64,000 nucleotides of DNA from Thermoplasmatota archaeon (GTDB lineage Archaea; Thermoplasmatota; JAKEGO01). Each line of letters begins with the position of its first letter. Positions within the stretch are counted from its first letter, which is position 1. Location of the stretch: NCBI GenBank assembly GCA_028279595.1, contig JANQNK010000020.1, positions 224,001-288,000 of the forward strand, read 5' to 3'. A program made the position numbers and the translations under genes. Positions 9,001 through 64,000 of this stretch are shown one piece after another. The notes under the pieces are model-generated. The model saw nothing but the letters and a program-made list of their open reading frames with translations, did not search any database and was not told the DNA's origin.

Positions 9001-12000
9001 CATCGTGATAACTAACGACGGCGAGGTTGACCTAGACATAACATATCTCTGGGACACACTCCTGGGCGACCTGAGCACATATCTCAGCACCGGATCGATC
9101 GCTGCGGGCACCTCGGAGACCATCACGGTGACCTACCTGGTGACAGACGAGTACGACCCGATCGAGAACACCGTGACGGTCAAGGCATGGAACCAGTTCG
9201 AGGCCGACCAGGTGGAGGCGTCCGACGACCACTCCTGCGACCTTCTGAGGACCGGAATGACGATGGAGAAGACCGGCCCAGCGACCGTCGAGATCGGCGA
9301 GACCGTCTACTGGGACTACCTTGTGACCAACACCGGCGAGGTACCGATCTACCTGACCCACGTCGATGAGGTACTGATCGAGGATTGGTACTGGCCCACG
9401 CCATTCTACATCGGTGTCGGCGGTTCCCAGTCGTTCTACTGGGGCAGTGGATACACCGTGACCACAGCTGATGACGATCCGCTCGTCAACAGCGCTACGT
9501 TCTATGCAGATAACTACTACGGCGAGGACGAGGTCCAAAGCACTGACGACCATGAATCGGACATCCTCCGCACCGGCATCGAGGTCACGAAGACCGGACC
9601 GGAGGAGGCAGAGGTCGGAGAGACGATCACGTACACCATCACCGTGAAGAACACGGGAGAGGTGAACCTGTACGTGACCCTGATCGACTCGTACTACGGA
9701 GACCTGACAAGCTACCTCACCAACCCGCTCGCACCGGGCGAGACGCAGACCTTCGACTACGACCACACGATACTCTCGACCGACGACGACCCGCTCGTGA
9801 ACACCATCACCGCAAGCGGCGTGAACCAGTACCAGGCGGACCCGGTCTCAGACGAGGCCAGCCATACCGTCGAGATCCTCGGAACCGGGGTCGAGATCAC
9901 CAAGACCGGACCGACCACCGCCGAGGTGTGGGAGGAGATAGTCTACACCTACACCGTAACCAACACTGGCGAGGTGGACCTTTACATCAGTTCCATCGAC
10001 GACTCGCTCCACGGCGAACTGAAGAACTACATCAGCGGTGGCGTCATAACCCTGCTCGAGGGCTCCGAGACGTTCACCATCACCCACCAGGTGACACAGA
10101 CGCCCGATCCGCTGGTCGACGAGGTCACCGTATACGGTGAGAACTCGAACGGCGGTTCACAGGTCCAGTACTACGACGACCACACCGTCGATATCCTCTA
10201 CACCGGAGTCGAGATCACGAAGACCGGACCGGCCGAGGCAGAGGTGGGCGAGGAGATCACCTACACTGTGACCATCAAGAACACTGGCGAGGTGGACCTG
10301 TACGTCACATCGCTCATGGACACCCTCCTGGGCGACGTCAGCGGATACCTCGACGACCTGGTCATACCTGTCGGTGTGACCGATACGATCCAGTACACCC
10401 ACACCGTGACCTCGGTCTACGATCCGCTCCCGAACGGCATCAACATCAACGTGGAGAACCAGTACGAGAGTGACTGGAAGAGCGACAACGATGATCACTC
10501 CGTGGATATCCTCCGCACCTACCTGACTGTCGAGAAGACCGGACCGGCCGACGCGGAGATCGGTGAGACGATAACATACACCGTGACCCTGACCAACGAC
10601 GGCGAGGTCGAGCTGACGATAACGGGCATGGAGGACGACCTCGTCGATGACGTGTTCGACCTCCTGACCGACACCACCCTGGACGTCGGCGAGTCCGTAT
10701 CCATCTCGTACACGCACACCGTGGCCTACCTGGGCCCCGACCCACTGCTGAACACCGTTACAGTGACCGCCGAGAACCAGTACGGCGAGGACGAGGTCGA
10801 GGAGTCCGACGACCACTCGGTCGACATCCTGAGAACAGGCGTGGACATCCTGAAGGAAGGCCCCGACTTCGCAATGATCGGCGAGGTGATCACGTACACC
10901 ATTACAGTATACAATACTGGCGAGGTGGACCTCTACATCACCAAGCTCGAGGACAGCAACGTGGGCGACCTGAGCGGAGAGATCAGCGGCGGTGTCATCA
11001 CCGTGGAAGAGGGCTTCGAGGTCATCACCTACGAGTGGACCGTCACACTGGACGACGCGAACCCGCTCAAGAACCAGGTTGTCGTGATAGGCGTGAACCA
11101 GTACGGCAACGACCCGGTCGCTGACTCGTACTGCCACGGACTCTGGCTCCTCTACACTGGCGTCGAGATCGAGAAGGACGGACCCGAGGAGGCCGAGGTC
11201 GGCGAGGAGATAACCTACACCGTGACCATCGAGAACACCGGCGACGTCGACCTGTACATCACGTACCTCTACGACTCGCTCGTGGGCAGCCTGCTCGGCG
11301 AGATCACCAACCCGCTCGAGGAGGGCGACTCGGTGACCATCACCTACACCTACATCGTGACCGAGGACTACGATCCGCTCGTGAACACCATCACCGTGCG
11401 GGGAGTGAACTTCTACGAGGCCGACGAGCAGGAGGAGACCGCCACCCATAGCGTCGATGTGCTCAGGACCGATATCGACATCTGGAAGCAGAGTCCCGCC
11501 GACGCAAAGATCGGTGACAAGATAATCTACACCATAACGGTGTGGAACCTTGGCGAGGTGGACCTGTACATCACAGAACTCGAGGACTCGCTCCTGGGTG
11601 ACCTTAGCATCTACATCACTGGAGGCGTGGTCTCCGTCGCCGAGGGCAAGGAGGTCATCACCTACGAATACACTGTGACCGACGAGTACGAACCACTGAT
11701 CAACACGATCGAAGTGACCGCATGGAACCAGTACGACTCCGACGAGGTATCGGATGCGGCAAGGTCCGAGGTCGAGATACTCCGCACGGACGTCGAGATC
11801 GTGAAGACCGGCCCCGAGACCGCCGAGCTAGGTGAGACGATCGAATACGAGGTCACCATAACCAACACCGGAGACGTCGACCTCTACATCACGTACCTCT
11901 ACGACTCGCTCGTGGGCGACCTGCTCGACGAGATCACAAATCCGCTCGAGCCGGGCGACTCGGTGACCTTCACGTACGAATACACGGTCAAGACGACCGA

Positions 12001-15000
12001 CCAGACCCCGCTCGAGAACACCATCGAGGTCAGGGGCTGGAACTGCCACGAGCTTGACCCGACATCCGACGAGGACAGCCACTCGGTCGACCTGCTCAGG
12101 ACCGGCGTGAGGATCACGAAGGACGGACCGGACGACGCTGAGATCGGCGAGACGATAATCTATACCATCGTGGTCTACAACACGGGTAACGTCGATCTGC
12201 ACATCACCTACCTCTGGGACAGCCTCCTGGGAGACCTCAGCGGCGAGATCAGCGGCGGTGTGATAACCGTTGCCGAGGGTTCCGAGACGATAACATACGA
12301 GTATACGGTCACTGACGAAGATCCGGACGAACTCGATAACACAGTGACCGTCAGAGGCACGAACGAGTTCGGCGAGGACGAGGTCGAGGACGATGCCAGC
12401 CACACCGTCGACCTGCTCTACACATCCATGGAGATATGGAAGGAAGGTCCGGAGACCGCTGAGATCGGCGAGACCATCTACTACAAGGTATATATCCAGA
12501 ACATTGGTGAGGTCGATCTCTACGTGACGCTGATCGACGATGACCCATGGGGAGATCTGCTGGCTGCGATCGGCCAATCGCCGACCGATCCGTGGATAGT
12601 ACCGGTCGGTCAGACCTCTTGGATAACCTACACTCACATCGTGACAACGAGCGATCCTGATCCGCTCATAAACACCGTGACCGTCGAGGCAGAGAACCAG
12701 TACGGTGCCGACCCGCAGGACGGAGAGGACAGCCATTCAACCGACATCCTTCGCACCGGAATGGAGGTCACCAAGACCGGACCGGACAACGCCGAGATCA
12801 TGGAGTACATAACCTACACCATCACCATCGAGAACACCGGCCAGGTGGACCTGTACATCACCGAGCTCGACGACTCGATGTTCGGCGACCTCCTGGACAG
12901 CTGGGGATACGATGAACTGAACCCGCTGATCATTGAACCGGGAGACACCTGGACCGTCTACATCTCGTTCAATGTGTTCACGTCGCACTCCGATCCGATC
13001 CTGAACACCGTGACCGTCACTGGTACGAACCAGTACGGTGCGGACCCACAGGAGGATTCCGACAGTCATGAGACCGATATCCTCCGGGCGAGCATTGATA
13101 TCGACAAGTCCGCCGTCGAGACCGCGCAGATCGGTCAGACGATCACCTACACCATAGTCATAACGAACGACGGCGAGGTCGATCTCGACATCACCTATCT
13201 GTGGGACACCCTCCTGGGGGACCTGAGCAGCTACCTGAGCACAGGCTCGATCGCAGCTGGAACGTCCGAGACGATCTACGTCACCTACCTGGTGACCGAC
13301 GAGTACGACCCGATCGAGAACACCGTGACCGTCAGGGCATGGAACCAGTATGATGCAGATCAGGTCGAGGCATCCGACGACCATTCCTGTGACCTGCTCA
13401 GGACTGGAATGACGATGGAGAAGACCGGACCGGCGACCGTCGAGATCGGTGAGACCGTCTACTGGAACTACCATGTGACCAACACGGGCGAGGTCCCGAT
13501 CTACCTCACGCACGTCGATGAGGTACTGATCGAGGACTGGTACTGGCCTACGCCCTACTACATAGGTGTCGGCGGTTCCCAGACCTTCTACTGGATCGGC
13601 GGATACACCGTGACCACGGCTGACGACGATCCGCTCGTCAACAGCGCTACCTTCTACGCAGATAACTACTACGGCGAGGACGAGGTCCAAAGCACTGACA
13701 GCCATAGTTCGGACGTCCTCCGCTCCGACATCACCATCGAGAAGACAGGACCCGCGACGGCCGAGGTCGGCGAGGAGATAACCTACGAAGTGACCATCAC
13801 CAACGACGGCGAGGTCGACCTCGAGATAACATACCTCTACGATTCGCTCGTGGGCAGCCTGCTCGGTGAACTGACGACGGGTTGGATATCCGCCGGTTCC
13901 TCCGAGACCATCACATACACCTACACCGTGCTCTCCACGGATGACACGCCACTCGAGAACACCATCACCGTGACCGGTCAGAACCAGTACGGCGAGGACG
14001 AGGTCTCCGCCGAGGACGACCACTCCGTCGCACTGCTCAAGACCGGCGTGAGGATCGAGAAGTACGGACCGACGACCGCTGAGCTGGGCCAGACCATCAC
14101 CTACACGATACGCGTGACCAACACAGGGAATGTGGATCTGACCATCACCGACCTTGACGACACCCTCCTGGGCGACCTTTACAGTGAGATCAGCGGCGGT
14201 GTGATAACTACCACGGAGGGCTTCGAGCAGTTCACCTATGACTACACCGTCACATCCGCTGATACCGATCCGCTCGGTAACACGATAACAGTCGACGCCA
14301 CCAACCAGTTTGGCGGCGACCCCGTAAGCGCTTCCGACAGCCACTCCGTCGACATCCTTTACGCCGATCTGAGCATCGAGAAATCGGCCCTGACCACCGC
14401 GCAGGTGGGTCAGACCCTCACATACACCTTCGTGATAACGAACGACGGCGAGGTCGATCTCGATGTGACGTACTTCTTCGATAGCCTCCTGGGCAACCTG
14501 ATCGGATACCTGGACACTGGAACGATCGCCGCAGGAACATCGGAGACGATAACCGTCGATCATCTGGTGACCGATGTCTACGACCCGATCTACAACTATG
14601 TCACCATCACGGCATGGAACCAGTACGACAGTGATGCTCAGAGCGATAGTGACTCCCATACGTGTGATCTGCTGCGTACAGGCATCGATGTCGCGAAGAC
14701 CGGACCCGCGACCGCGGAGGTCGGCGAGCAATACTACTACACATACACAGTATACAACACAGGGGAGGTCACCCTGTACTTCGATACGATCCAGGACACC
14801 CTCAAGGGTGACTTCACCTGGACGACCCCGTTCGCGGTCCCGGTCGGTGGAAATCAAGTGATCCTGTGGACCTACACCGCCACCGATGAGTTCGACCCGA
14901 TAGAGAACACCGCTACATTCACCGGATGGAACGAGTACGATGAGGACGAGGTCACGGACTCGGACGACCATGAAGTCGACCTTCTCCGGACGAACATCGA

Positions 15001-49825: not shown

Positions 49826-52800
49826 CTATTGTTTCTCCTTCCTTTCGGGATCCTCTTTCTCCTGCTTCTCGACACCCTCTTCCCATTCGGGTGTGGGGGC
49901 ACCCTCGTCCCCGGGTCCTGCAGGGGTCTCGCCGGGATCATCGCCGTCCGCCTTCGAACCCTCCCATTCCGGCGTTGCCTCGGGATCGTCGGAATCGTCC
50001 TCTGCGGAAACCTCATCCTGTTCGTCGCCGTCGTCCTCCCATTCAGGGGAGTCGACCGACTTCGATTCGTCCCGCAGGCCGTCGAGGTCCTCCTTCCTCT
50101 CGGGTCCCGGCCTCGCTCCGGGGACGGCCTTTTCATCCTTGTCCGGAGCCCTCATCGATCCATAGCGCTCGACGTGTCCGGCGTCCTCGAAGTCCTTGAT
50201 GTCGGGTCCCTCGTCCGGTTTCCGCGGCACGCCCATGGGGAAGTCGGGGCCTACATCGTCGGGTTCGCTGCCCGGGATCGGCGGTAACGGCTTGAGGCCC
50301 TTTCCGTCGTCCTCGACCTCGTCTTCGCTGTCCCCGTCCTTGGTCTTTTCCCACGCATCGTCCTGCGATCCCTTCGGCAGCAGCGCGCCGCACTCGGGAC
50401 AGCGATGGGATACGTTGTCCTCGACCTCGGACCTGCAGCGCGGACAGGTGACCTTGTTCGCCCTTGCCCTGATCTTCTTGAAGGCGCTCTTGTGCCTGAT
50501 GTAGACCACTGCAAGGAATATCACGACGATCACGAGGACCGCTATCATCAGGAACGGAACGAGGGAGCTCTCGTCCTTCTCCCCCTGCAGCTCGAGGGGA
50601 GCGAAGATCGTCAGATGAGTGACGTTCGCCCAGACGAAGTCGTTCTCGATGTCGACGCCGGTAAGACCCGCGATACGCCAATCCTCGTCCTCGGCATCCC
50701 AGTAGAACATGCGCAGTTTCTTTGCGCTGACACCGGAGGGAAGGTCGCCGTAATGCACCTCTATACTGACCCACGAGACGTTCGCATCGGGATCGTCGAT
50801 CTCGATGGTGAAGTAGAGTCCTATGTCGGTCCTATCACCGCCTGACGGGTCTGCGGTGGGGCCTACGTCCAACTCACCCGGGCCCTGGATGGATGCCCAG
50901 ACCACAATGTATCCATCCGTGAACGAGCTGTTGATCATGAGGATGCGGTCCCGCGTCACGACCGTCGCTGTGAGCGGTAATAACTCACTCCCTTTGGACC
51001 CGTTGTTGATACCGTCAGTTGCCACGATCCAGTAGTTGACCCCGGGCGGGACCACGGCATAGCCAGGAATGACGGCAGAGTAGGTGCCTGACAAGTGGTC
51101 CCCAGAGGTCCGATCCATTTCGATGCCAGCGAAACTGAACGGGTATCTCGGGTCCTCGTAGCGAAGCTCGACATATTGAACGAACCGATCATCGCCCACT
51201 ACCGCCGAAATCGTCAACGGTTCGCCGTGCGTCCAGTTGACCTCGGGGACATGGCTGATCCACGGCGCATCGGTGTCGTCCGGAGTAAGGACGTCCACCT
51301 CGTACGGGTCGCCCACCGGGTCAGTGACCGAGTTGCGACCGTCCGAGGCGATCATGTAGTAGGAGAAGTCGTCGGAGACATCCGAAGCAGGGATCGTCGC
51401 TTTGAAGAGGATCCCTCCGTACATTGGCAGTGTCTTCCATGATGAGCCCTTCCCGTAATAGAGCGTGACATTGTCGATCCCGATGTCGTCATACACATAT
51501 ACCGTGATGTTCACATCCACACCGGCCTCCGCCGATGTCACTGGTTCGTGGACGATGGCTGGGGGATTCCTGTCGACGGCCGAGAGGTCGATTGTGAAGT
51601 TCCTCTTCTCGGACGGTACCTCGAACCTGCCATCGCCGATCTCCACCCACCATTGGTAGGTGATGTTCTCAGTGAGATTGTATATGAATGTTGCCGATGA
51701 GTTGTGCTGGTGGACCTGCCAGACCTCGGTGCCGTTGTGATAGAGGAGCAGGCGGTTGCTGTAGGCGTCTCCGTCGGGATCGTAGGACTGCCACGCGAAC
51801 AGGACGGTGGTCGAATTGATGACAGCGTCGTCGGGCGGTGTCAACAGATCCACGGTCGGCGGATGGGGAAGGTCGGAGTTGTTCAGGGTGACGAGGGTAC
51901 CGAGGCTGTATCCATCGACGGACTGGTCGCTTGGAAGGAACCATACGTACAGTGTGCCACTGAACTCGGGGACGTCGTTGAGCGAATCCCAGACGAAGGT
52001 GTAATTCACCCCGGTTGCGTCAACCGGTAGGTCGTCGGTGTCATTCAGGATGGTACAGGGTCCGTATGTACTGTTATCGATGTGCCAACCGACGTAGACC
52101 GAAACCGGGTCCCAGTTCGCGTCCGCAATGGTCACGTTGAACCAGACCAGTCCCATGTCGACGTTCTTGTCGATGAGCTCGATCGTCGGCTGTTGCGCCA
52201 GTAACATGAAGGATATCCTCAATACCGGACCGGGACCCACGGTTTGTTTGACCTGTTCGCTTGCCCTATCCTTGACCGAGACGTTGTAGGTCTGGTTGTG
52301 AGTACCAGTGATGTTGTGAACGACGCCGGGCATGATGATCCATGGGCTCTTGCCCTTCGTGTCCGTCCGGGCTCCAGTTCCGCCATATCCGGGGGATGCA
52401 TGCATTACGGTATCGGATATCGTGTTCAGGACCTCGATCTCGGCGTCGCCGACCGGATTGGATGCAAGGGTGTCGTCGGTCACCATGACCTGGAAGTACA
52501 TCATCTCAGTGATCCAGCTGTAGTCGTGAATTGTCGCCCAATCCCAGGTCGAGTTGTATGTAAGCAGGTAGGAGCCCGACAGGTCCAACCTACCAAAGGA
52601 AACGTTGAAACCGGTGCCCATTGAATCCCTCAACGCGAAGTAATCGTCAATGCTCGAGTGCTCGATCCAGAAGGTGGTGTCCATCAGTTCGATGTCCTCG
52701 ATGATAGAATCCGAGATATCGATGTCGCTCTCATGGGCCTGTAGCTCGCACCACGCCATACTCAGTGAGGCGCCTTCGATATCGATGCCTTCGGAACCCA

Positions 52801-55249
52801 CTATCAGGATGTTGATGTCGGTCGCGTTCATGATTGCGAGGTTCGAGCTGTTTATCAGTGCAAGGTATCCATGCTCGCTGGCATCGATGTCATCGGTAGC
52901 GTTCATGTAATATCCGATGGAGCCTCCGTTCACTGTCACCGTCTCGTTGAAGTCGAGGGTGGTCATGTCGATGCTCTCTCCGTCCATCCACAGGTTGCCG
53001 ATGTCCGAATCCCTCATGACCAGCGTACCGAAGCTAACCTTGAGGTCGTCGGAAAGCACAGAACCTGTTATCTCGAGGGTTGAATCTCCCAACCAGGCAT
53101 CCCCCTCCAGACCGGAGTCGATGACCACGACATGGCTCGAGAAGTAGACCTGGGCCGAGTTGAACCCTCCCGTCATGTTCGAATCCTCTATCGTCAGGTT
53201 CGAGAACACGACCATGAAGCCACTTGGAACATCGACGAAATTGCAGCCTTCGACCATCACGTCCGCGAATGTCAGGTTGTACTGGCTCCCCCCTCGGAAA
53301 CTTACATCATCGAAGTTAGCCGACCCGGTTATGTCGAACCCATCCGTGTTGCGTATCTCACCGCCCGTCCAATTGACGTGGCCGCCCACTGACAGGTCCG
53401 CGCCGATCAACGACGTATCCATGAACTCGGCCGTCCCCGTGATATCGAGATCGCCCTCGATATCGATCATGTACAGCGATGCCGATCCCGGAATCGACAC
53501 CGAGTCGAACACTCCGATTGTCGAATTGCTCACGGATGAAACGGAATCGATCACCATCCGCTCGTTCTCGACCCATTCTACGTGGATGCCGTCCTCCATC
53601 AGCTCGAGGAGTTCGATCCGTGTGTTGATGGACCCGTTGAGGGTCAGGGCTTTCGATATGGTGCCCCCGTCATAGGTCCCGTTGAGAACGTGTATGGTAT
53701 CTCCTTCGGCCGCGTTGTCGTGCCCCTTCATCACGGTGTCGTAGGGGTGATCCATCGAACCGTTCATGCTCCCGTTCGCGTCGTCGTCGACGTAGATGTC
53801 CATCGCGTACGGTCTTGTGAACGTCTCCTGGCGGCTCAACTGCATGTTCAGGTCCCTCATCTCCGACCAAGGTCCGAGGGTCATGCCTGCGTCGATGTCG
53901 TGGAGCGTCATTCCCCCCATGCTCCGCGTCATGTACTTGACGATGACACCTCCGATGATACCTGTCGACCGCGTCTTGTCGTCGGTCCCGTTGTAGACCT
54001 CGGTGGAATATATCTTGGAACCATCCTCGATAACGACACCGTCGACCCCCTCGATGGGTCCTTCCGAGTTCTTCGCATAGAGCCAGAGGTAATTGTACAT
54101 CGTGAACGTCGATGTCGAGTCCACCGAGTGATTGTTATGTGTGAGATTGTAGGAGTTAACCTCCGACGAGTCGATGAGCTCCATGTCCATCTCGGTGACA
54201 TCAATGGTGGAGTTCGTTATGTTGCCCCATGAGGCTTCGTAGCCGATCCCGTCCTCCGATTCGTTCAGGCCGATATCGTAGATGTCGGAGCTCGAGTTCC
54301 GGAAGTAGATCGACGCGAAGGTTCCGTCGCACCTGTAGAAGGTCGTGTCCATAATGGTCAATGTCGCCATGTAGGTCTCCATGTGTCTCTGTACCGAGTC
54401 AACGAGCGAGCTGTTCACGATATCGACGGTACCCTCGGAGACGGTGATCCCGTCGGTGGCCCCTTCTATCGTGACGTTGTCAATGGTCACGTCAAAGCCT
54501 TCCGTGATCGGTATCCCGTCGGTGCAGTCCTGTATCAACGAGTCCTCTATGGTGACGTTGATGTTGTCCTTCAGCATGATGCCGTTGGAGGCCGAGTAGA
54601 TCTGTGCCCTCCTGACGATCGTGTCGTTGGTCTCCTTTGCGAGGTCGATCCCGTAGGTGCTCCCCGTGACCATCACGTCCTCGATGGTGACATCCTCGGA
54701 CTCGTAGATGTACATACTGAACAGGGACACACCGAGGACGCTCGAGTTCCTAACTGTCACGTTGGTAGAGCCTTTCACGGAAACGCCGCGCACACCGTTC
54801 GTGATGTCGATCTTGTTCATCAGCGCGGTCTCGGCACCGGTGATGTCGATCGCAGTCTGGGTTATCGTGGGGAACTCCAGGTCCCTGAGCCTGATGTCGG
54901 GGGCCGTGCAAAGGATGCCGAAATCGCCGTCCTGGACCGATATGTGGCTGATGGTCGCGTTGGCGCTGACGTCGAACACGGTCCCGACAACCTCGACCGC
55001 GGTCTCGGTGGTTCCGTTCCCGTAGATCGTGACCGATTTGTTGACGATCACATTCTCATGGTAGTTCCCGGCGAACACGTAGATCCAATCGCCATCGGTC
55101 GCGTTGTCGATAGCGCCCTGGATGTTGTCGTAGTCCGCCTTCGCCCAATCGTCGTCGACGATTATGACGTCGCCGCTGCCGACAGCGGCTACGGCTAAAA
55201 GCATGCTCGATAGGCACAGGAGTGCTAGAAATCCCCTCAACATGTGCAT
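49826..55249 (-). CDS. Large surface glycoprotein with parallel beta-helix (NosD/CASH-like) domains, Ig-like domains, TM, cytoplasmic zinc ribbon and acidic tail
   Basis: Signal peptide; two VDDD...IQ.AID-type beta-helix caps; many NxS/T sequons; TM LMIAVLVIVVIFLAVVYI; CPRC...CPEC; D/E/P-rich tail. Confidence 0.85.
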   Translation of the reverse strand: MHMLRGFLALLCLSSMLLAVAAVGSGDVIIVDDDWAKADYDNIQGAIDNATDGDWIYVFAGNYHENVIVNKSVTIYGNGTTETAVEVVGTVFDVSANATISHISVQDGDFGILCTAPDIRLRDLEFPTITQTAIDITGAETALMNKIDITNGVRGVSVKGSTNVTVRNSSVLGVSLFSMYIYESEDVTIEDVMVTGSTYGIDLAKETNDTIVRRAQIYSASNGIMLKDNINVTIEDSLIQDCTDGIPITEGFDVTIDNVTIEGATDGITVSEGTVDIVNSSLVDSVQRHMETYMATLTIMDTTFYRCDGTFASIYFRNSSSDIYDIGLNESEDGIGYEASWGNITNSTIDVTEMDMELIDSSEVNSYNLTHNNHSVDSTSTFTMYNYLWLYAKNSEGPIEGVDGVVIEDGSKIYSTEVYNGTDDKTRSTGIIGGVIVKYMTRSMGGMTLHDIDAGMTLGPWSEMRDLNMQLSRQETFTRPYAMDIYVDDDANGSMNGSMDHPYDTVMKGHDNAAEGDTIHVLNGTYDGGTISKALTLNGSINTRIELLELMEDGIHVEWVENERMVIDSVSSVSNSTIGVFDSVSIPGSASLYMIDIEGDLDITGTAEFMDTSLIGADLSVGGHVNWTGGEIRNTDGFDITGSANFDDVSFRGGSQYNLTFADVMVEGCNFVDVPSGFMVVFSNLTIEDSNMTGGFNSAQVYFSSHVVVIDSGLEGDAWLGDSTLEITGSVLSDDLKVSFGTLVMRDSDIGNLWMDGESIDMTTLDFNETVTVNGGSIGYYMNATDDIDASEHGYLALINSSNLAIMNATDINILIVGSEGIDIEGASLSMAWCELQAHESDIDISDSIIEDIELMDTTFWIEHSSIDDYFALRDSMGTGFNVSFGRLDLSGSYLLTYNSTWDWATIHDYSWITEMMYFQVMVTDDTLASNPVGDAEIEVLNTISDTVMHASPGYGGTGARTDTKGKSPWIIMPGVVHNITGTHNQTYNVSVKDRASEQVKQTVGPGPVLRISFMLLAQQPTIELIDKNVDMGLVWFNVTIADANWDPVSVYVGWHIDNSTYGPCTILNDTDDLPVDATGVNYTFVWDSLNDVPEFSGTLYVWFLPSDQSVDGYSLGTLVTLNNSDLPHPPTVDLLTPPDDAVINSTTVLFAWQSYDPDGDAYSNRLLLYHNGTEVWQVHQHNSSATFIYNLTENITYQWWVEIGDGRFEVPSEKRNFTIDLSAVDRNPPAIVHEPVTSAEAGVDVNITVYVYDDIGIDNVTLYYGKGSSWKTLPMYGGILFKATIPASDVSDDFSYYMIASDGRNSVTDPVGDPYEVDVLTPDDTDAPWISHVPEVNWTHGEPLTISAVVGDDRFVQYVELRYEDPRYPFSFAGIEMDRTSGDHLSGTYSAVIPGYAVVPPGVNYWIVATDGINNGSKGSELLPLTATVVTRDRILMINSSFTDGYIVVWASIQGPGELDVGPTADPSGGDRTDIGLYFTIEIDDPDANVSWVSIEVHYGDLPSGVSAKKLRMFYWDAEDEDWRIAGLTGVDIENDFVWANVTHLTIFAPLELQGEKDESSLVPFLMIAVLVIVVIFLAVVYIRHKSAFKKIRARANKVTCPRCRSEVEDNVSHRCPECGALLPKGSQDDAWEKTKDGDSEDEVEDDGKGLKPLPPIPGSEPDDVGPDFPMGVPRKPDEGPDIKDFEDAGHVERYGSMRAPDKDEKAVPGARPGPERKEDLDGLRDESKSVDSPEWEDDGDEQDEVSAEDDSDDPEATPEWEGSKADGDDPGETPAGPGDEGAPTPEWEEGVEKQEKEDPERKEKQ

Positions 55250-57144: not shown

Positions 57145-58305
57145 TCACTCGAACGACCGCCGGATGCTCTCGATCGCCGCATCGATGTTCTCCAGACTCG
57201 TAGCGTAAGAGAACCTCAGATATCCTTCACCGTAGGGTCCGAAGGATGTCCCCGGAAGGACCGCGACACCTGCGTTGTTGAGGAGATGGTCTGCCACCTC
57301 CTGCGAGGTCATGCCCGTGCCCTTGATGTTCGGGAACGCGTAGTATGCTCCCTTGGGGGCGAGGCAGCTGAATCCGGGTATGGAGTTCAATCCTTCCACC
57401 ACGCGGTCCCTCTTCTCCTTGTACCTCACCATCATCTCAGAGATGAACGCCTGATCTCCGGTGAGGGCCTCGACACCGGCCCACTGGGTGAACGTTGCTG
57501 TACACGACACGGCACTCACGAGGAAGTCCTGCAGTCGTGCCGCCAACGGTTTCGGGACTACCATGTAACCGAGGCGCCAGCCTGTCATCGCATAGTATTT
57601 CGAGAATCCGTCCAGGAGGACCGTCCGCTCGGCGCAGCCGTCCCTCGCCGTGGGCGAGAAGTGGTCGTCCTCGTATGTCATCTTCGAGTAGATCTCGTCG
57701 GACATCACCCAGACATCCCTTTCCTCGGCTATCTCCGCGATCTCGTCCATCTCCTTCCTGGTCATCACCGACCCGGTCGGGTTCTGGGGTGAGTTGACTA
57801 CGATCAGTTTCGTCTTCTCCGTAATACGTTCCTCGATGTCCGCCGGGTTCATCCTGAACTCGTTCTCCTCAAGCAACGGGATGCAGACCCCCTTGGCGCC
57901 GATGAACGAGACAATGGAACCGTATGCCGGATATCCCGGGTCCTGGTAGATGACCTCGTCCCCGGGGTCCACGATCCCTAGCATTCCGAAGAAGATGCCG
58001 GGTTTCAGTCCCGGAATTATGACGATCTGCTCGACGTCCGGCCTGTATCCGCGGGTCCTCTCGACCTCGTCCTGGAGTGCTTGCCTGAGTTCCAGGACTC
58101 CGACGGAAGGGACGTAGTGGGTCTTCTTCTTCTGGATCGCCCTGATGCCTGCCTGGGCTATGTTATCGGGTGTCTCGATGTCCGGCTCTCCGATCTCGAA
58201 GTGGAGTATCTCCCTGCCCTGTCGTTCCAGGGCCTGGGCCTTCGCCAGCACCTCGAACGCCGCTTCTCCGTAGATCCTTCCCGCTCCGTCGCTGAGCTCT
58301 ACCAT
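57145..58305 (-). CDS. PLP-dependent aminotransferase class I/II (aspartate aminotransferase-like)
   Basis: IGEPD, NSPQNPTG, SDEIY, FSKYYAMTGWRLG and GYLRFSYA motifs. Confidence 0.95.
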   Translation of the reverse strand: MVELSDGAGRIYGEAAFEVLAKAQALERQGREILHFEIGEPDIETPDNIAQAGIRAIQKKKTHYVPSVGVLELRQALQDEVERTRGYRPDVEQIVIIPGLKPGIFFGMLGIVDPGDEVIYQDPGYPAYGSIVSFIGAKGVCIPLLEENEFRMNPADIEERITEKTKLIVVNSPQNPTGSVMTRKEMDEIAEIAEERDVWVMSDEIYSKMTYEDDHFSPTARDGCAERTVLLDGFSKYYAMTGWRLGYMVVPKPLAARLQDFLVSAVSCTATFTQWAGVEALTGDQAFISEMMVRYKEKRDRVVEGLNSIPGFSCLAPKGAYYAFPNIKGTGMTSQEVADHLLNNAGVAVLPGTSFGPYGEGYLRFSYATSLENIDAAIESIRRSFE

Positions 58306-58306
58306 C

Positions 58307-60127
58307 TCAATGACCTCCTGCGTATCCGGAGAGGCCGAGTTCCGCCAGCCTCCCTTCCGTGGGAACGCCGGTGGCGTCCCAACCTCTCAATGAATAGTAA
58401 TCCTGAAGGCACTTCTCGTACCCCTCCCGGTCGAGCGTAACACCCTTCGCCTCGCCCTCCGTGAAGGGATCGTTGAACATCCTCGGAGGGAGAGAGTCAT
58501 CCGGGTTCATGCCTTCCCGAAGATTGAAGAGCCGGACGAGATTCCAGATCCTCTCGCCGGCCATGAGATAGCTCTCGACGGTGTGGTCGAAACCCGTGGC
58601 CTTGTTCCACATATCGACGCAGTCCTCCTCCGATACTGGCGCGAAATCGCAGAGTACCAGGGAGAAGAATGCAGCCCTCTCGTCCTGCATGCCCTTGACG
58701 AGTTCAGGCTTCCTTTCGAACGAGAATCTGTCATAGTCCGGGTCACCGATCTCCGTAGTGACGGTCCAGGCCCTCTCGTGGCAGCCGCCCCTGTCGGATG
58801 TGCCGTATGCCAGTCCCATGCCGAACGCTCCCCGTGGATCGTATCCCGGGATCTCAAGTCCGTTGGCGTGCACTGCGAACGCTTCGGAACCTTGACCTAG
58901 GATCTCGGCAGCTCCCCGAACACCCTCGGCGAGCACGTCCCCAGCCCGGTTACTCCTGTGAGCGATATCGTCGGCAAGCTGTGCCAGTGACGGCGGATCG
59001 CCCCACGATATCGAGTTCCCGCCGAGGTCCTCGTCGGAAAGGACCCCCTTCATGTATGCCTCGACGGCGAACCCAAGCACACCACCGAGGGAGATGGTGT
59101 CCATCCCGAGCTCGTTGCACCTTTCGTTGAGGTAGGCCACGTCCTCCATTGTACCGACCCCGAGGTTGGAACCCATGAGGGCGATCGTCTCGTACTCAGG
59201 ACCCACAAGGGTCGTCCCCTCGAATGGTCCCGACTTCACCGATGACCTGTTCCAGCAGGCTATCATGCAGTTGTAGCAGGCTCCTCCCTTGTCGACGATC
59301 CTCTCCTGCATCTGCTCGGCAGTTATCGCCTCGCCGTCCTCGAACCACCCTTCCTGGTAGTTCCTGGTCGGGAGCAGGCCCCAGTCGTTGACGGGTTTGA
59401 CCCAGTACGGTGTTCCGAACTTCGTACGGTTGGGCAGGAACGGATGCTCCCTGAATATCTTCAGGACCCTCGCCGTCGCCTCCTTGAACCCATCGGGGTC
59501 GTGGAGCGGTACGGTCCCGGTACCGACGATCGACACCGCCTTGAGGTTCTTGGAACCCATGACAGCACCCGAACCCCCCCGGCCCGCGTGCCTGTGGCCG
59601 TCCACGGTTATCGCCGCCAACTTCACCAGGTTCTCCCCGGCGGGGCCTATGACGGCCGTCCTGACGCGTCCGTTCGCCTGTAAGGCCTCGTGTGTCTCAA
59701 GGCATTCCATCCCCCAGAGGTCTGACGCGTCCTCGAACTCGATAGAATCATCCGATATACAGATCTGGACTGGTGATTCCGACCTGCCTGTTATGATGAT
59801 GACGTCCCAGCCCGCCTTCTTCATCTCGGCCGCAAAGGTACCGCCGAAGTGGGAGTCGAGGAAGAGCCCGGTCTGGGGAGATTTCGTTACCACCGTCCCC
59901 CTTCCCGACGTTTGCGCCCCCGTTCCTGTGAGCGGACCGCTCGTGAACATCAGGAGATTCTCGGGAGAGAGAGGATCGGTTCCCGCAGGAAGCCTGTCGA
60001 ATAGCAGTTTCGCTCCGAGCCCCTTGGCTCCTATGAAATCCCTTGCATCGTCAAGGTCCGTCTCCTCGATCGAGGTCGTCTTCGATCCCAGATCGATGTG
60101 CAGCATCCTACCTGTGTAGCCACCCAT
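58307..60127 (-). CDS. Tungsten-type aldehyde:ferredoxin oxidoreductase family protein
   Basis: GPAGE, GRGG.GAVMGSKNLKA, CYNCMIAC, PEYET, LGMDTIS and RGGCH motifs. Confidence 0.95.
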   Translation of the reverse strand: MGGYTGRMLHIDLGSKTTSIEETDLDDARDFIGAKGLGAKLLFDRLPAGTDPLSPENLLMFTSGPLTGTGAQTSGRGTVVTKSPQTGLFLDSHFGGTFAAEMKKAGWDVIIITGRSESPVQICISDDSIEFEDASDLWGMECLETHEALQANGRVRTAVIGPAGENLVKLAAITVDGHRHAGRGGSGAVMGSKNLKAVSIVGTGTVPLHDPDGFKEATARVLKIFREHPFLPNRTKFGTPYWVKPVNDWGLLPTRNYQEGWFEDGEAITAEQMQERIVDKGGACYNCMIACWNRSSVKSGPFEGTTLVGPEYETIALMGSNLGVGTMEDVAYLNERCNELGMDTISLGGVLGFAVEAYMKGVLSDEDLGGNSISWGDPPSLAQLADDIAHRSNRAGDVLAEGVRGAAEILGQGSEAFAVHANGLEIPGYDPRGAFGMGLAYGTSDRGGCHERAWTVTTEIGDPDYDRFSFERKPELVKGMQDERAAFFSLVLCDFAPVSEEDCVDMWNKATGFDHTVESYLMAGERIWNLVRLFNLREGMNPDDSLPPRMFNDPFTEGEAKGVTLDREGYEKCLQDYYSLRGWDATGVPTEGRLAELGLSGYAGGH

Positions 60128-60174
60128 TTGATCACGTCCGTGATTGGGACGATTATGTCCCCTGAGCGTGAGGT

Positions 60175-61194
60175 TCAGTCCATGTTCAGGAGGTCGATGA
60201 GCAGTGCGAAACCGGTTTCCCGCTTCCCGGCACCCGGTCCGACTATCGTGACCGGTCCGAGCTCGTCGGTCTCGAAGGTCAGGGCGTTGGTTGCCTCGCC
60301 GACGCCGGCCAGCGGATCGCTGAGCGGCAGCCTCATGGGCTTGACGCTCGCCGAGAATGTTCCGTCCTCCTCGATCTCAGCACATCCGATGAGCTTCCAG
60401 CGCTCCCCGGAGGCCTTCGCCGAAGCTATATCCTCCATGGAAATTCCCGTAATGCCCTCGCGCTCGACGTCCTCGATCGAAATGCGCTTGCCGAGCACGA
60501 CGTTCGAGAGGATGACGACCTTTCCGAGGGCGTCCCAGCCCTCAACGTCTCCCGTGGGATCGGCCTCGGCATAGCCAAGCTCCTGGGCCTTTGCGAGGGC
60601 GTCCTCGTACGACATCCCCTCCTCCATCCGGGTGAGGATGTAGTTCGTCGTTCCATTCATTATCCCCTTGAACCCTGTGATATTGTTGCCCGCGAGCGTG
60701 TACCTCGCAAGGTTCAAGACGGGCGTACCTGCCAGGACGACACCCTCGAATCCGTACTGGACGTCGTTCTGGATCGCCAGTTCCGTCAATTCTGCGACGT
60801 GCTTGACCGTCGGCCCCTTGTTGGTGGACACGACGTTCATGCCGGCATTCAACGCTGCCTTGACGTGCGTGGTCGCGGGCTCTCCGGTCTTGACGTCCGT
60901 GTAGGTGACCTCGATTATCGTGTCGGCATTGGTCTCGGTTATCGTCGCGAGGCTGTCCATCCCCTTGATGCCCGTCGGATAGTTGCCGAGGTCCTCACCG
61001 GACGATGCCATCTCGAGGAGCTTGGTCATGTCCAGGCCTTCCTCGTCGTAGACAGCGCCCTTGATCATGTCCGAGACGGCCACCACTTCGTATGTCAGGC
61101 CGAGGTTCTCGAGCATCTCGGCCTTTTCCAGGAGTATCTCGCAGAGTCCGACGGCCACTGTGCCGAATCCGATGAACGCCAGCCTGTGATGCAA
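60175..61194 (-). CDS. hom: Homoserine dehydrogenase (no ACT domain)
   Basis: IGFGTV, NKGP, NGTTNYIL and GYAEADPTGDVEGWDA motifs. TTG start 1 nt from the upstream stop. Confidence 0.92.
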   Translation of the reverse strand: MHHRLAFIGFGTVAVGLCEILLEKAEMLENLGLTYEVVAVSDMIKGAVYDEEGLDMTKLLEMASSGEDLGNYPTGIKGMDSLATITETNADTIIEVTYTDVKTGEPATTHVKAALNAGMNVVSTNKGPTVKHVAELTELAIQNDVQYGFEGVVLAGTPVLNLARYTLAGNNITGFKGIMNGTTNYILTRMEEGMSYEDALAKAQELGYAEADPTGDVEGWDALGKVVILSNVVLGKRISIEDVEREGITGISMEDIASAKASGERWKLIGCAEIEEDGTFSASVKPMRLPLSDPLAGVGEATNALTFETDELGPVTIVGPGAGKRETGFALLIDLLNMD

Positions 61195-61195
61195 T

Positions 61196-62470
61196 TCAGT
61201 CCCCCCTGTGGTGCAGTTCGGGAGCGGCGATGAAGGTCAGACCGTTCTCCGTCAGCGCCCTGGCGGTGTTGTTGAGGGCGTTGTGCTTCTCGAGGTAGTT
61301 GCGGGTCAGGTGCGGCATGACGCCCTGCGCTTCCGCGTCCGACCTGTCCATGAAGTAGTCGAGGATGTCGCTCGGGTGTTCGAGGGTCTCTTCGACCGCC
61401 GTCTCCCCGCCCTCGTGCTTCGCGCTGATGTTCTTGACCGTGGATGCGATCTCGAGGAGCTCGTCCCGCCTGTCGTAGGGCTGAATAACGATGCTCTTGT
61501 ATGTCTCGAGGATGTGGTGCTCGAACCTGACGTTCTCCTCGAGGCCGAGGTTGCCACGGATCTGGTCGCTGATCTCGATGGTGGTATTGTCCACGGAGTT
61601 GGAGAAGTTGAAACCGATGAGCGACGTCGTCCCGTCCGGTCGCGAGAACAGCCGCGCCATCATCAGGGTCCAGAAGACCGCGTAGGGATTGTCGTTCCCC
61701 ATGAACACGGATATCTTGAACTGGATGTCGATGCCGAGCTTGTGGAGCAGATAACCGACGAAGATCGTGCCTGGATTGATGTTCAGCACTTCCTTCACTC
61801 CGTAGTTCGTGTAGTAGTAGAGGAACTCGTCCGCCCAGAGGACGGGATGGTCGTTCGGCTGTCCGACGCCTCCGAAGTAGCCAGTTATCGTCGCCGGTCC
61901 ACCGAGATGGACGTTGCTGCCGTCAGTGCCCTTCGTGTCCAGGGTCTCGCACCAACTCGCTCCGATGATCTGCATGGCGGCGGACATGGCAAGGATGTCA
62001 TCGTCCTCCTCCTGCTCCTTCATCTTTCGGACACGGATGAACCGCCCCGGCATGAGCTCACCGTTTTCAATGGCCTGCCTGGCCGACTCCATGAAGAATG
62101 AGAAGTACTGGCATGCCGAGACCTCGAGGGTGACGGCGAAGTCCTCGTTGAACATCATCTCGTCCGCGCCGTCTCCGAGGACCTTCCTGCGATACTCATC
62201 CACACCGATGAAGGCGCCGGAATCCCGCTGCTCGATCAACCAGTTCAGGTCATCGATGTAGGGCGAGCCCTTGGCCTCGAGTCGCGCCATCAGGTTCTCC
62301 ACCTTTCCGGCATCCCGAGCCTTCCGGTTTATCTCCTCGGGTCCGCCGTACTTCTCGACCACGGCCAGGAAATCGTTCACAAGCCTGTTGTCTGGGTCGA
62401 GCAGGAACGCATTGATCTCGTCGAGTCTCATGTCCTCTATCGCCAGTTTACCACGTATGTCATCTGACAT
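61196..62470 (-). CDS. Uncharacterised soluble enzyme-like protein, first gene of the hom-aor-aminotransferase operon
   Basis: 424-aa ORF with a GGGAGG RBS and glycine/charge-rich motif-like stretches (ETLDTKGTDGSNVHLGG, GYFGGVGQPN, EHH, KHEGG). I recognise no family. Confidence 0.85.
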   Translation of the reverse strand: MSDDIRGKLAIEDMRLDEINAFLLDPDNRLVNDFLAVVEKYGGPEEINRKARDAGKVENLMARLEAKGSPYIDDLNWLIEQRDSGAFIGVDEYRRKVLGDGADEMMFNEDFAVTLEVSACQYFSFFMESARQAIENGELMPGRFIRVRKMKEQEEDDDILAMSAAMQIIGASWCETLDTKGTDGSNVHLGGPATITGYFGGVGQPNDHPVLWADEFLYYYTNYGVKEVLNINPGTIFVGYLLHKLGIDIQFKISVFMGNDNPYAVFWTLMMARLFSRPDGTTSLIGFNFSNSVDNTTIEISDQIRGNLGLEENVRFEHHILETYKSIVIQPYDRRDELLEIASTVKNISAKHEGGETAVEETLEHPSDILDYFMDRSDAEAQGVMPHLTRNYLEKHNALNNTARALTENGLTFIAAPELHHRGD

Positions 62471-62562
62471 GCAATATGCCTCCCAATGATACCTCCGACG
62501 CTCGCTTGAGGGATAGTTCCGAACGCCCCATCGAAGTATCGCTCCACCCTAGTCTTTGGGGG

Positions 62563-62576
62563 ATATTAATTTTTCG
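62563..62576 (-). promoter_or_regulatory. BRE/TATA promoter of the four-gene catabolic operon
   Basis: The minus strand reads CGAAAA-ATTAATAT, about 95 nt upstream of ATG 62470. Confidence 0.6.
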
Positions 62577-62599
62577 TTATGCTGTCAACAGTTTGGTCA

Positions 62600-63589
62600 T
62601 CAAAAGGTCGACGATAGTCGTTTGGGAGCCCGGTCTACGCCCTTGGAGAACAGGTAGCCCGCGATGAGAGGCAATCCAATCGACATATCTACGAACGCCA
62701 TCGATCTCTTCGCCCTCCTGTCCACCTTGCCCCAAGACTGTGCTTCCCTGAGCGTCGAACCGGACAGTCCTCCCCATTCCGGTCTGTCCATGGTGAGCTG
62801 TACCGCGTACTCATGTCCTGGAACGTCGCCGTATATCATGTCCGCCATCACGACGGCGTCGTTGATGTAATTCTTCGGAACACCGCCGCCGATGTAGATC
62901 GCGCCGGTCCCGTCGGCGTCGTTGACGAGCTTGGCCATCTCCATGTTGTCCTGGATCGTGTCGATGGTCGGTCCCTTGCCCGTACGGCTCCTGACGACGG
63001 CAAGTCCGATCCCGATAGAGCTGTCGGCGATCGCGGGGCAGTATACCGGCACGTCGAGGTCCTTCGCGGTGCAGAGGATCGAATCCTCGTCCTCGACCAT
63101 GTCAGAGAGGTGATCCATGAAAAGACGGGTGCCCATGGTCCCCTCCTGCTCCGCGAACTTCCTTCCGATGAGGATGTCAAGGGTCCGGAACGCGTACTCA
63201 TCGACGTAGGTGTCGTATATCCTGTCTATGTAATTGTCATGGAGCTCGGCGTCGGGAGCTTCCACGTCCCCTTTGTAGTGCTTGTAACCGGCAGCCTGGT
63301 AGAGGTCCTGGTAGAGTATCGCTCCTGTCGATACGACCACGTCGATCATGCTCCTCTTCATGAGGTCGGCGACGACCTTTCGAAGACCTCCCGCGATCAT
63401 CGCTCCCGAGAGGCCCAGGAATACTGTGACGTCATCGTTGAGCATGTCCTCCCAGATCCTAGCCACATCGGCAAGGGCCCTTCCCTGGAACGACGTCGAG
63501 CCCAGGGACTCGACGAGTTCCTCGATGGACGATACCATCTCGAGGTCGATATGCTCGATCTCCTCCCGGAGGAGGTCCTCCCTCTTCAT
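62600..63589 (-). CDS. dys: Deoxyhypusine synthase (family)
   Basis: LSGAMI..GLR, PAIADSSIG, IGGGVPKN and GGLSGST..EAQSWGKV motifs. Confidence 0.93.
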   Translation of the reverse strand: MKREDLLREEIEHIDLEMVSSIEELVESLGSTSFQGRALADVARIWEDMLNDDVTVFLGLSGAMIAGGLRKVVADLMKRSMIDVVVSTGAILYQDLYQAAGYKHYKGDVEAPDAELHDNYIDRIYDTYVDEYAFRTLDILIGRKFAEQEGTMGTRLFMDHLSDMVEDEDSILCTAKDLDVPVYCPAIADSSIGIGLAVVRSRTGKGPTIDTIQDNMEMAKLVNDADGTGAIYIGGGVPKNYINDAVVMADMIYGDVPGHEYAVQLTMDRPEWGGLSGSTLREAQSWGKVDRRAKRSMAFVDMSIGLPLIAGYLFSKGVDRAPKRLSSTF

Positions 63590-63598
63590 GACGTCACC

Positions 63599-64000
63599 TC
63601 ACTCGATGATAAGTACGGCTGCGGCTACAACGGTGGTCCACTTGCCACTGGAGCCGCTCTTCGCTGCGACCGCGATGTGCTGGGTATTGACTATCCGGCC
63701 GTCGATCTTGAAGATGTCCCTGACCTCGTCGTAACCCGCGTCGAGGTCGTACTCGATCCCCAGCGTGGATGCGAGCATCTCCGCGGCGAGGTCCTCAGCG
63801 TACTCGCCGATCTTCTCCTCGGACATGCCGAACTCGTGGTGCTCGCTGATGTAACCGTGCTTGGTCCTGTCCTGGGGTATGGCGCAGCCGATGGCTGCCG
63901 AAACGAGGCGCCCATCCTCCTTCGATCCGTTCTGCGAAAGCACTGTGTGGAGGATCTGGCCGGCTTTGAGCATCCCAACGCCCTCGTCCATGGATATGAT
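63599..64000 (-). CDS. pdaD: Pyruvoyl-dependent arginine decarboxylase (partial; N-terminus beyond the window)
   Basis: SAAIGCA.P...HGYISEHH, AEDLAA.MLASTLG and WTTVVAAAV motifs. The frame runs to the window edge. Confidence 0.88.
   Translation of the reverse strand: MISMDEGVGMLKAGQILHTVLSQNGSKEDGRLVSAAIGCAIPQDRTKHGYISEHHEFGMSEEKIGEYAEDLAAEMLASTLGIEYDLDAGYDEVRDIFKIDGRIVNTQHIAVAAKSGSSGKWTTVVAAAVLIIE

Follow-up and report, generated by a model that had tools for sequence, protein, structure and literature searches.

Gene content of the operon

A 64,000-nucleotide stretch of the genome of a Thermoplasmatota archaeon (assembly GCA_028279595.1, contig JANQNK010000020.1, positions 224,001 to 288,000 of the forward strand; hereafter the window) carries, on its minus strand, four adjacent genes that an earlier note, made from the letters alone, had put forward as a catabolic operon running through homoserine, and we examine here these four genes and the protein family at their head. 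In reading direction they encode a 424-aa protein that we call X (61196..62470), with a predicted TIM barrel (residues ~108–420 in an AlphaFold 2 (AF2) model) behind an N-terminal helical domain; a 339-aa homoserine dehydrogenase without an ACT domain and with a TTG start (Hom; 60175..61194); a 606-aa tungsten-type aldehyde:ferredoxin oxidoreductase (AOR; 58307..60127); and a 386-aa class I, subgroup Ib-like pyridoxal phosphate (PLP) aminotransferase (AT; 57145..58305). The open reading frame (ORF) listing confirmed the proposed co-orientation of the four genes with intergenic gaps of 1, 47 and 1 nt, and gaps this short indicate one transcript. The 129-nt spacer 5′ of X (62471..62599, minus strand) was read as containing a putative A/T-rich BRE/TATA-like box (CGAAAAATTAATAT at 62576–62563, minus strand, ~95 nt ahead of the X ATG) and a Shine-Dalgarno-like GGGAGG 8 nt ahead of the ATG, and no Rfam family matched within it. 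The box fits the suggestion that the operon has a promoter of its own, but the gene upstream of the spacer, a deoxyhypusine synthase, lies on the same strand as X and leaves read-through possible.

The 339-aa protein is, by family assignment, a homoserine dehydrogenase: it matches PF00742 at 203 bits and exceeds the equivalog cut-off of the NCBIfam model PRK06270 (404.6 bits; cut-off 373), and the domain scan returned NAD-binding and catalytic domains only, in agreement with the earlier statement that an ACT domain is lacking. Residues K126, E210, D216, D221 and K225 are kept in ≥90% of both the X-linked Hom clade described below and canonical Homs (41 sequences in all), and would be the NKGP lysine and the Glu, Asp and Lys of the AExDPxxDxxGxDxxxK signature that serve catalysis and substrate binding in the family. 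AOR matches AFOR_N (256 bits) and AFOR_C (425 bits), its closest solved chains are 9mqx (461 bits) and 1aor (451 bits), with FOR (1b25) at 344 bits, and its translation shows a CxxCxxxC motif (GACYNCMIAC). AT matches the class I/II aminotransferase family PF00155 at 225 bits, shows the PLP-lysine motif SK...GxR (GFSKYYAMTGWRLGY) in its translation, and has as its best solved relatives the aromatic (top) and aspartate aminotransferases of P. horikoshii and the aspartate aminotransferase of Thermus. It fell below every NCBIfam equivalog cut-off, the best aspartate aminotransferase models giving 317 bits (cut-off 550) and 295 bits (cut-offs 617 and 624). Its earlier labeling as an aspartate aminotransferase is thus upheld as far as the class I PLP enzyme goes, but not at the level of an aspartate aminotransferase equivalog.

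Recurrence of the operon and exchange of its third gene

Close homologues of X (76–88% identity) sit in X-Hom-AOR-AT clusters whose outer flanks differ. Within a phylum sample of 251 genomes spread evenly, 26 match X, including the source genome and one 59-residue fragment; loci were taken from 24 X-carrying Thermoplasmatota genomes and searched with tblastn, and 22 of them had downstream sequence. Hom directly follows X in 18 of these 22 informative loci, and the third gene is an AOR in 12 loci and a PF00171 aldehyde dehydrogenase (ALDH) in 5 (L043, L044, L047, L050 and L058). The families nearest to this ALDH are the lactaldehyde, succinate-semialdehyde and non-phosphorylating GAP dehydrogenases (SSADH/GAPN type), which makes the displacing enzyme one of the hydrolytic type, neither ProA-like nor CoA-acylating. 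Hydrolytic ALDHs work in the oxidative direction. Since the third gene is either an AOR or a hydrolytic ALDH, an aldehyde is probably oxidized at that step, and we regard this non-orthologous displacement as the strongest sign that an aldehyde-to-acid oxidation follows Hom. The nature of the replacing enzyme, hydrolytic and not ProA-like, also led us to drop X as a candidate activating enzyme of the aspartokinase/Asd type.

The same genes occur in other orders in two archaeal loci (L099 and L133), and a Caldiserica bacterium has X-AOR-Hom (L100). Recurrent linkage of X to hom, with or without AOR, which the earlier note had named as support for its proposal, was therefore found in archaea and in one Caldiserica bacterium, but not in bacteria at large, where most homologues are unlinked to hom and stand instead with a PanB paralogue, FolD/Fhs, DHDPS or a fusion of DHDPS with the formaldehyde-activating enzyme (DHDPS-Fae).

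A dedicated Hom clade and a second head family

We placed 24 X-linked Homs in a maximum-likelihood tree with 20 further Homs from the phylum, and all X-linked Homs, the Caldiserica one included, form one clade (support 99/95). Its members are 54–72% identical to the window Hom, compared with 27–46% for the canonical Homs of the phylum, and the clade has fixed differences from the canonical enzymes (E202 to K, R287 to E/K and A328 to G).

Only two Homs of the clade are not X-linked (G095 and G031), and both come from genomes without X but with a 316-aa protein, here called X2, that lacks the N-terminal helical domain of X, belongs to no Pfam family and has >2300 database matches. Copies of ~315 aa lie at L170:5734–6684 (G095), L173:6001–6948 and L172:6001–6942. 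Profile comparison of X2 with X by hhalign gave E values of 8e-5 and 3e-4, with matches at the same strand motifs (MEISG in X2 versus LEISA in X; FKVSIYAGHAN versus FKISVFMGNDN; FNP versus FNxS; DIHIY versus EHHI), and a strand-5 lysine is conserved in both. The operon of G095 has the order Hom-AOR-X2-AT, an unrelated metagenomic lineage (L173–175) has X2-Hom-AOR followed by metallo-beta-lactamase-fold genes, and in another genome X2 lies upstream of a DHDPS gene. X and X2 were never found together in one genome of the phylum sample. From these profile matches and gene orders we take X and X2 for two branches within a single undescribed superfamily of TIM barrels, whose roles would be the same or similar.

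Missing routes to and from homoserine

The source assembly (86% complete) has a single Hom. PF02774 has no match in it, which leaves it without Asd and ArgC alike; aspartokinase, ThrC and ThrB were not found above cut-off, HcyBio is absent, and tblastn found no DapA or ALDH. The reported lack of ask, asd, thrB and thrC near the operon thus extends to the whole of this assembly; metX, also named as absent, was not searched for. Aspartokinase above cut-off is likewise absent from 18 of 19 genomes with the X-Hom pair, and 13 of the 19 have no PF02774 match, with 5 more having a single weaker match that we read as ArgC-like by its score and model range. Five representative X-Hom genomes, among them one that is 99% complete (G004), have no ThrB above cut-off and no genuine PF01053 Cys/Met PLP enzyme (matches ≤34.5 bits, including the operon AT), and one short MetE-like gene each. 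In families f14, f16, f12, f5 and f2, we found Hom solely in genomes with X.

Homoserine in the X-Hom archaea would accordingly have neither its textbook source nor its textbook sinks, and given these absences the consistent reading is a flux from X through Hom and the aldehyde-oxidizing enzyme to aspartate. In the source assembly Hom is clustered with an aldehyde-oxidizing enzyme, and Asd and aspartokinase were not found, which is what an oxidative homoserine module of the canavanine type, discussed below, would show.

Relatives and predicted structure of X

X had no match in Pfam, NCBIfam or the sequences of the PDB, as expected from its description as an unassigned protein. A profile search of the PDB returned nothing at E values up to 10, single-sequence PDB matches were noise, and a feature search of the ESM Atlas gave no usable match. 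Homologues of X number >8000 database matches, and in a one-genome-per-species collection at least 595 stretches encode relatives, in taxa that include Chloroflexota, Bacillota, Thermotogae, Bipolaricaulota, Desulfobacterota, Caldiserica and Spirochaetales. Within this collection, the 80 best relatives are 63–78% identical to the window protein, and identity between archaeal and bacterial X is ~63–69%. Among the more distant homologues is a 385-aa protein (47–51% identity; L008:8001–9158) on a contig of 41 kb that VirSorter put in its viral category 3, at low confidence; RFC-like, ERCC4, Vsr, ThiF and radical-SAM genes lie on the same contig together with numerous small ORFs.

An AF2 model of X built from a 38-sequence alignment (mean predicted local distance difference test, pLDDT, 92; predicted template modeling score, pTM, 0.91), which replaces a single-sequence AF2 model (pLDDT 34), shows a predicted eight-stranded alpha/beta barrel (~108–420) behind the helical N-terminal domain. 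Invariant residues lie on the barrel strands or shortly behind them: E116 and S118 (strand 1), R143 and R148 (strand 2), T179, N186 and H188 (after strand 3), N230 (strand 4), K252, S254, D260 and N261 (strand 5), N288 and S292 (strand 6), E317 and H319 (strand 7), and K351, H352 and E353 (strand 8). The X alignment shows no conserved cysteine.

A Foldseek search of the PDB placed class II (metal-dependent) aldolases at the top, with E values of ~1e-4, TM scores of 0.3–0.4 and a root mean square deviation of ~10 Å, and a VIA wide search gave a flat plateau (Z ~11–12) over many unrelated TIM barrels. X was not assigned as a class II FBA, CutC, IspG, glutamate mutase E, BKACE, transaldolase or U32-like enzyme, since Foldseek, VIA and an atlas shape search gave generic TIM barrels only. 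Structure prediction, recommended in the earlier note for fold and cofactor, has thus yielded a confident TIM barrel, but with fold searches returning only generic barrels the chemistry of X is not readable from its fold.

Bacterial gene contexts of X

Neighbor clustering over 93 X loci gave two main contexts that never coincide, X followed by Hom (23 loci) and a PanB-family gene beside X (25 loci). The PanB gene (336 bits to PF02548) is directly upstream of X on the same strand in 19 of the 25. This X-linked PanB is a second paralogue (330–355 bits), and the top-scoring copy (380–404 bits) adjoins panC, usually with panE and sometimes with panD, in 9 of 20 genomes checked. Across the 20 panB-X genomes, an ApbA/PanE match of ~84 bits or more was found in 16, PanC in 13 and full-length PanD in 4. 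With PanE-type matches in most of these genomes and a separate, higher-scoring panB beside panC in nine, we rejected X as a substitute for PanE, PanC or PanD; a role as ketopantoate reductase PanE/ApbA is further argued against by the predicted non-Rossmann fold of X and by the X-Hom archaea, where PanB was not found in 18 of the 19 genomes. Most of the panB-X bacteria (G251–G270) have two or three PanB paralogues (for example G265:C29:4201–4977 and G265:C98:58758–59534).

Around the second panB and X (panB2-X) we found FolD in 4 loci, formate-tetrahydrofolate (THF) ligase (Fhs) in 3, a CBS-domain amino-acid dehydrogenase of the ELFV type in 7, a class I fumarase and Lrp regulators; MtnA lies near X in 3 loci. 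DHDPS-family aldolases abut X in L066, L068 and L069, and AOR abuts it in L068, L069 and L123. Fusions of a DapA-like aldolase with Fae stand directly beside X in one Undinarchaeales and one Anaerolineae genome (L080:6387–7952; L090:9276–10706 and 10645–12177). To judge from this pairing of domains, the aldolase may pass formaldehyde on to a pterin carrier, and our search for literature on DHDPS-Fae fusions found no relevant paper. A Calothrix sp. metagenome-assembled genome has a co-directional run of genes for a thiamine pyrophosphate enzyme, an ApbA-like reductase, an ELFV dehydrogenase, DHDPS and X (L066:452–7310), possibly another 4-hydroxy-2-oxo-acid pathway that contains X. In a divergent branch of X (42% identity) the genes after X encode an IlvD/Edd dehydratase, a lactonase-like protein of the metallo-beta-lactamase fold, Dak1/Dak2 and an IclR regulator (L006:329–5817), and for this branch the neighborhood looks like that of a sugar-acid catabolic role. 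Searches of 17 bacterial loci and of the window gave no riboswitch or leader close to X; a lone T-box lies 5 kb away on the other strand.

To judge from their families, the partner enzymes of X share a theme, in that they would form 4-hydroxy-2-oxo acids from a 2-oxo acid and a one-carbon (C1) unit, or cleave them into these parts, or else interconvert 2-oxo and 2-amino acids. The PanB paralogue, FolD/Fhs and DHDPS-Fae contexts suggest 4-hydroxy-2-oxobutanoate (HOB)/homoserine as the shared metabolite, and the common intermediate may be HOB rather than homoserine itself.

Discussion

We lean towards reading X-Hom-AOR-AT as a single catabolic operon that would take a C4 compound by way of homoserine and aspartate semialdehyde to aspartate. 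X (elsewhere X2) would deliver a C4 intermediate at the level of L-homoserine or HOB, the dedicated Hom would oxidize homoserine to aspartate-4-semialdehyde with NAD(P)+, and AOR would oxidize the semialdehyde to aspartate with ferredoxin, a step that would fall to an NAD(P)-dependent ALDH in some relatives. The class I AT could convert Asp to oxaloacetate, move the amino group between HOB and homoserine, or do both. HOB would then have two routes of disposal, one being oxidation to aspartate (Hom, AOR or ALDH, and AT) and the other cleavage by the PanB paralogue or DHDPS-Fae, which would give pyruvate and a C1 unit bound to a carrier, with FolD/Fhs acting next. We infer the substrate identities, the direction of flux and the chemistry of X from the gene order, the enzyme displacements, the Hom clade and the pathway gaps observed above. 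The oxidative route from homoserine to Asp set out in the earlier note gains from the swap to ALDH in five loci, from the lack of Asd and aspartokinase and from the precedent of canavanine degradation described below, but its assignment of AT to Asp is less firm, as this enzyme may act on HOB or homoserine.

Several observations count against such a pathway. X occurs without Hom in four Thermoplasmatota genomes and in most bacteria, so that it is not tied to Hom, and AT is missing from some loci (L058, L100 and L173). In relatives the operon has genes for 2-oxoacid:ferredoxin oxidoreductase (POR) and ADP-forming acyl-CoA synthetase at its flanks; AOR proper accepts a broad range of substrates and in peptide fermenters often lies near aminotransferases serving general amino-acid fermentation. 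The completeness of the source assembly weakens its gene absences, one of the 19 X-Hom genomes (G088) does have an aspartokinase, adjoining an Asd-like gene, and ThrC is above cut-off in 1 and near cut-off in 3 of the 19.

These flanking genes and the broad specificity of AOR would suit an arrangement in which X and Hom are one unit and AOR and AT are general fermentation genes acting on another carbon skeleton, as would the loci that lack AT and the variation in subtype of both AT and AOR (49–78% and 47–70% identical to the window proteins, respectively). We consider this unlikely because an aldehyde-oxidizing enzyme has stayed with Hom through two independent displacements, of the oxidizing enzyme's family and of the X family, and in a bacterial copy with a rearranged gene order; the 1–47-nt gaps, too, point to a common transcript. 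Another possible reading keeps the genes together and changes the substrate. The Hom clade would oxidize some other 4-hydroxy-2-amino acid akin to homoserine, for instance a 3-substituted homoserine that stems from a 4-hydroxy-2-oxo acid of the PanB type, and the product would then not be aspartate. It draws on the separateness of the clade with its fixed changes at positions 202, 287 and 328, and on the partnership of X with makers of various 4-hydroxy-2-oxo acids (PanB paralogue, DHDPS and DHDPS-Fae), but it is made doubtful by the score of the window Hom above the homoserine dehydrogenase equivalog cut-off, by the homoserine-binding and -oxidizing residues kept in both Hom groups and by the near-complete lack of PanB among the X-Hom archaea.

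The pathway could also run in reverse, with reduced ferredoxin driving AOR from aspartate to aspartate semialdehyde without ATP, Hom making homoserine, and AT and X carrying it onward, for example from HOB and methanethiol to 4-methylthio-2-oxobutanoate and methionine, the bacterial PanB paralogue making HOB from pyruvate and methylene-THF. Some replacement route to aspartate semialdehyde would be needed where aspartokinase and Asd are missing if homoserine is required, AOR enzymes can reduce acids, FolD and formate-THF ligase beside panB2-X would fit C1 supply, and the genomes checked keep a short MetE-like gene yet have no MetB-, MetY- or MGL-type enzymes. However, a hydrolytic ALDH, of a kind that does not reduce carboxylates, replaces AOR in five loci; no anabolic sink for homoserine is recognized (no ThrB above cut-off, and in the source genome no DapA, no HcyBio and no ThrC above cut-off); and the organisms look like auxotrophic peptide fermenters. 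The ALDH variants and the absent sinks thus make the reductive route unlikely overall, conceivable as it is for the AOR variants.

Returning to the oxidative operon, we tentatively propose, as one speculation among others, that X and X2 are cofactor-light TIM-barrel lyases or hydratases that release HOB or homoserine from a C4 acid substituted at position 4, the best candidate substrate being 4-methylthio-2-oxobutanoate, formed from methionine and losing methanethiol. HOB would go on to homoserine, aspartate semialdehyde and aspartate in archaea; in bacteria it would be split to pyruvate and a tetrahydrofolate- or methanopterin-bound C1 unit, with ATP gained via FolD/Fhs. Ranked behind this candidate substrate are sulfonium compounds from which homoserine would be set free (S-methylmethionine and S-adenosylmethionine), then C4 sugar acids dehydrated to HOB, then homoserine lactone or esters. 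Circumstantially, methionine is favored by carriers that ferment amino acids, by the five genomes without a methionine gamma-lyase family enzyme, by MtnA in three loci and by the amino-acid dehydrogenase and aminotransferase genes that flank X. The X-Hom archaea look like peptide fermenters with many auxotrophies, and the strand-5 lysine common to X and X2 could serve Schiff-base elimination chemistry.

In lower ectoine degradation (DoeD/DoeC), a non-phosphorylating ALDH oxidizes aspartate semialdehyde to aspartate, and an aminotransferase belongs to the cluster. That aminotransferase, DoeD, is a class III enzyme that converts diaminobutyrate to aspartate semialdehyde, and the pathway requires no Hom, whereas the operon has a class I AT and no gene is linked to X more tightly than Hom. 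A synthetic homoserine cycle, engineered and assimilatory, reportedly joins pyruvate and a C1 unit to HOB, and transamination of HOB then gives homoserine; enzyme types that such chemistry would need occur beside bacterial X (PanB paralogue, DHDPS-Fae and FolD/Fhs). We know of no natural pathway described through HOB. In bacterial canavanine degradation, purified Hom and ALDH turn homoserine into aspartate in vitro (PMC9533460). As we propose for our operon, a catabolic Hom is clustered there with an enzyme that oxidizes aspartate semialdehyde to aspartate, with no need of Asd or aspartokinase. The two differ at the head, where homoserine is released from canavanine by a PLP gamma-lyase in the one and the TIM barrel X stands in the other, and further in the tungsten AOR and ferredoxin of most of our loci, in the aminotransferase in place of an ammonia-lyase after aspartate, and in the anaerobic archaeal hosts. 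By this analogy the lower half of the pathway, Hom and the oxidation of the aldehyde to aspartate, is a module of a known kind with one bacterial biochemical precedent, and what is new, as far as gene content tells, is its ferredoxin-linked AOR version, its archaeal hosts, the dedicated Hom clade and the two undescribed TIM-barrel families at its head. Literature searches on a natural HOB/homoserine pathway, on a gene for S-methylmethionine hydrolase and on this operon in Thermoplasmatota returned nothing relevant beyond PMC9533460.

X and X2 are two large undescribed protein families, conservation as strong as that of X usually marks a central, mechanistically constrained enzyme, and the comparative data narrow its metabolite to the homoserine/HOB node. 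If the proposed pathway is correct, it would be the first archaeal, ferredoxin-linked oxidative catabolism of homoserine, and would explain the orphan hom genes of auxotrophic sediment archaea, otherwise misannotated automatically as threonine/methionine biosynthesis. It might then also reveal a natural counterpart of the engineered homoserine cycle, or a new route in anoxic sediments for a common substrate such as methionine, that is, an undescribed anaerobic methionine degradation.

Surroundings of the operon in the window

The operon is flanked in the window by unrelated housekeeping genes. On the downstream side PurP and a 190-aa unknown ORF converge on it, and directly upstream (62600–64000, minus strand) lies a polyamine/hypusine gene pair, a pyruvoyl-dependent arginine decarboxylase followed by the deoxyhypusine synthase. 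No flanking direct repeats were found around the operon and the sole tRNA of the window is ~47 kb away, so that an origin as an integrated mobile cassette is not supported; the Hom tree and the X identities are incongruent with taxonomy, the window proteins grouping with family f14 and not with a genome of the same order (G003). The tRNA, a tRNA-Arg(GCG) at 9673–9766 (minus strand), was called at 94 nt, longer than standard, and may contain an intron. A 1807-aa ORF with right-handed beta-helix/NosD-like repeats (49826–55249, minus strand) probably encodes a large secreted or surface protein.

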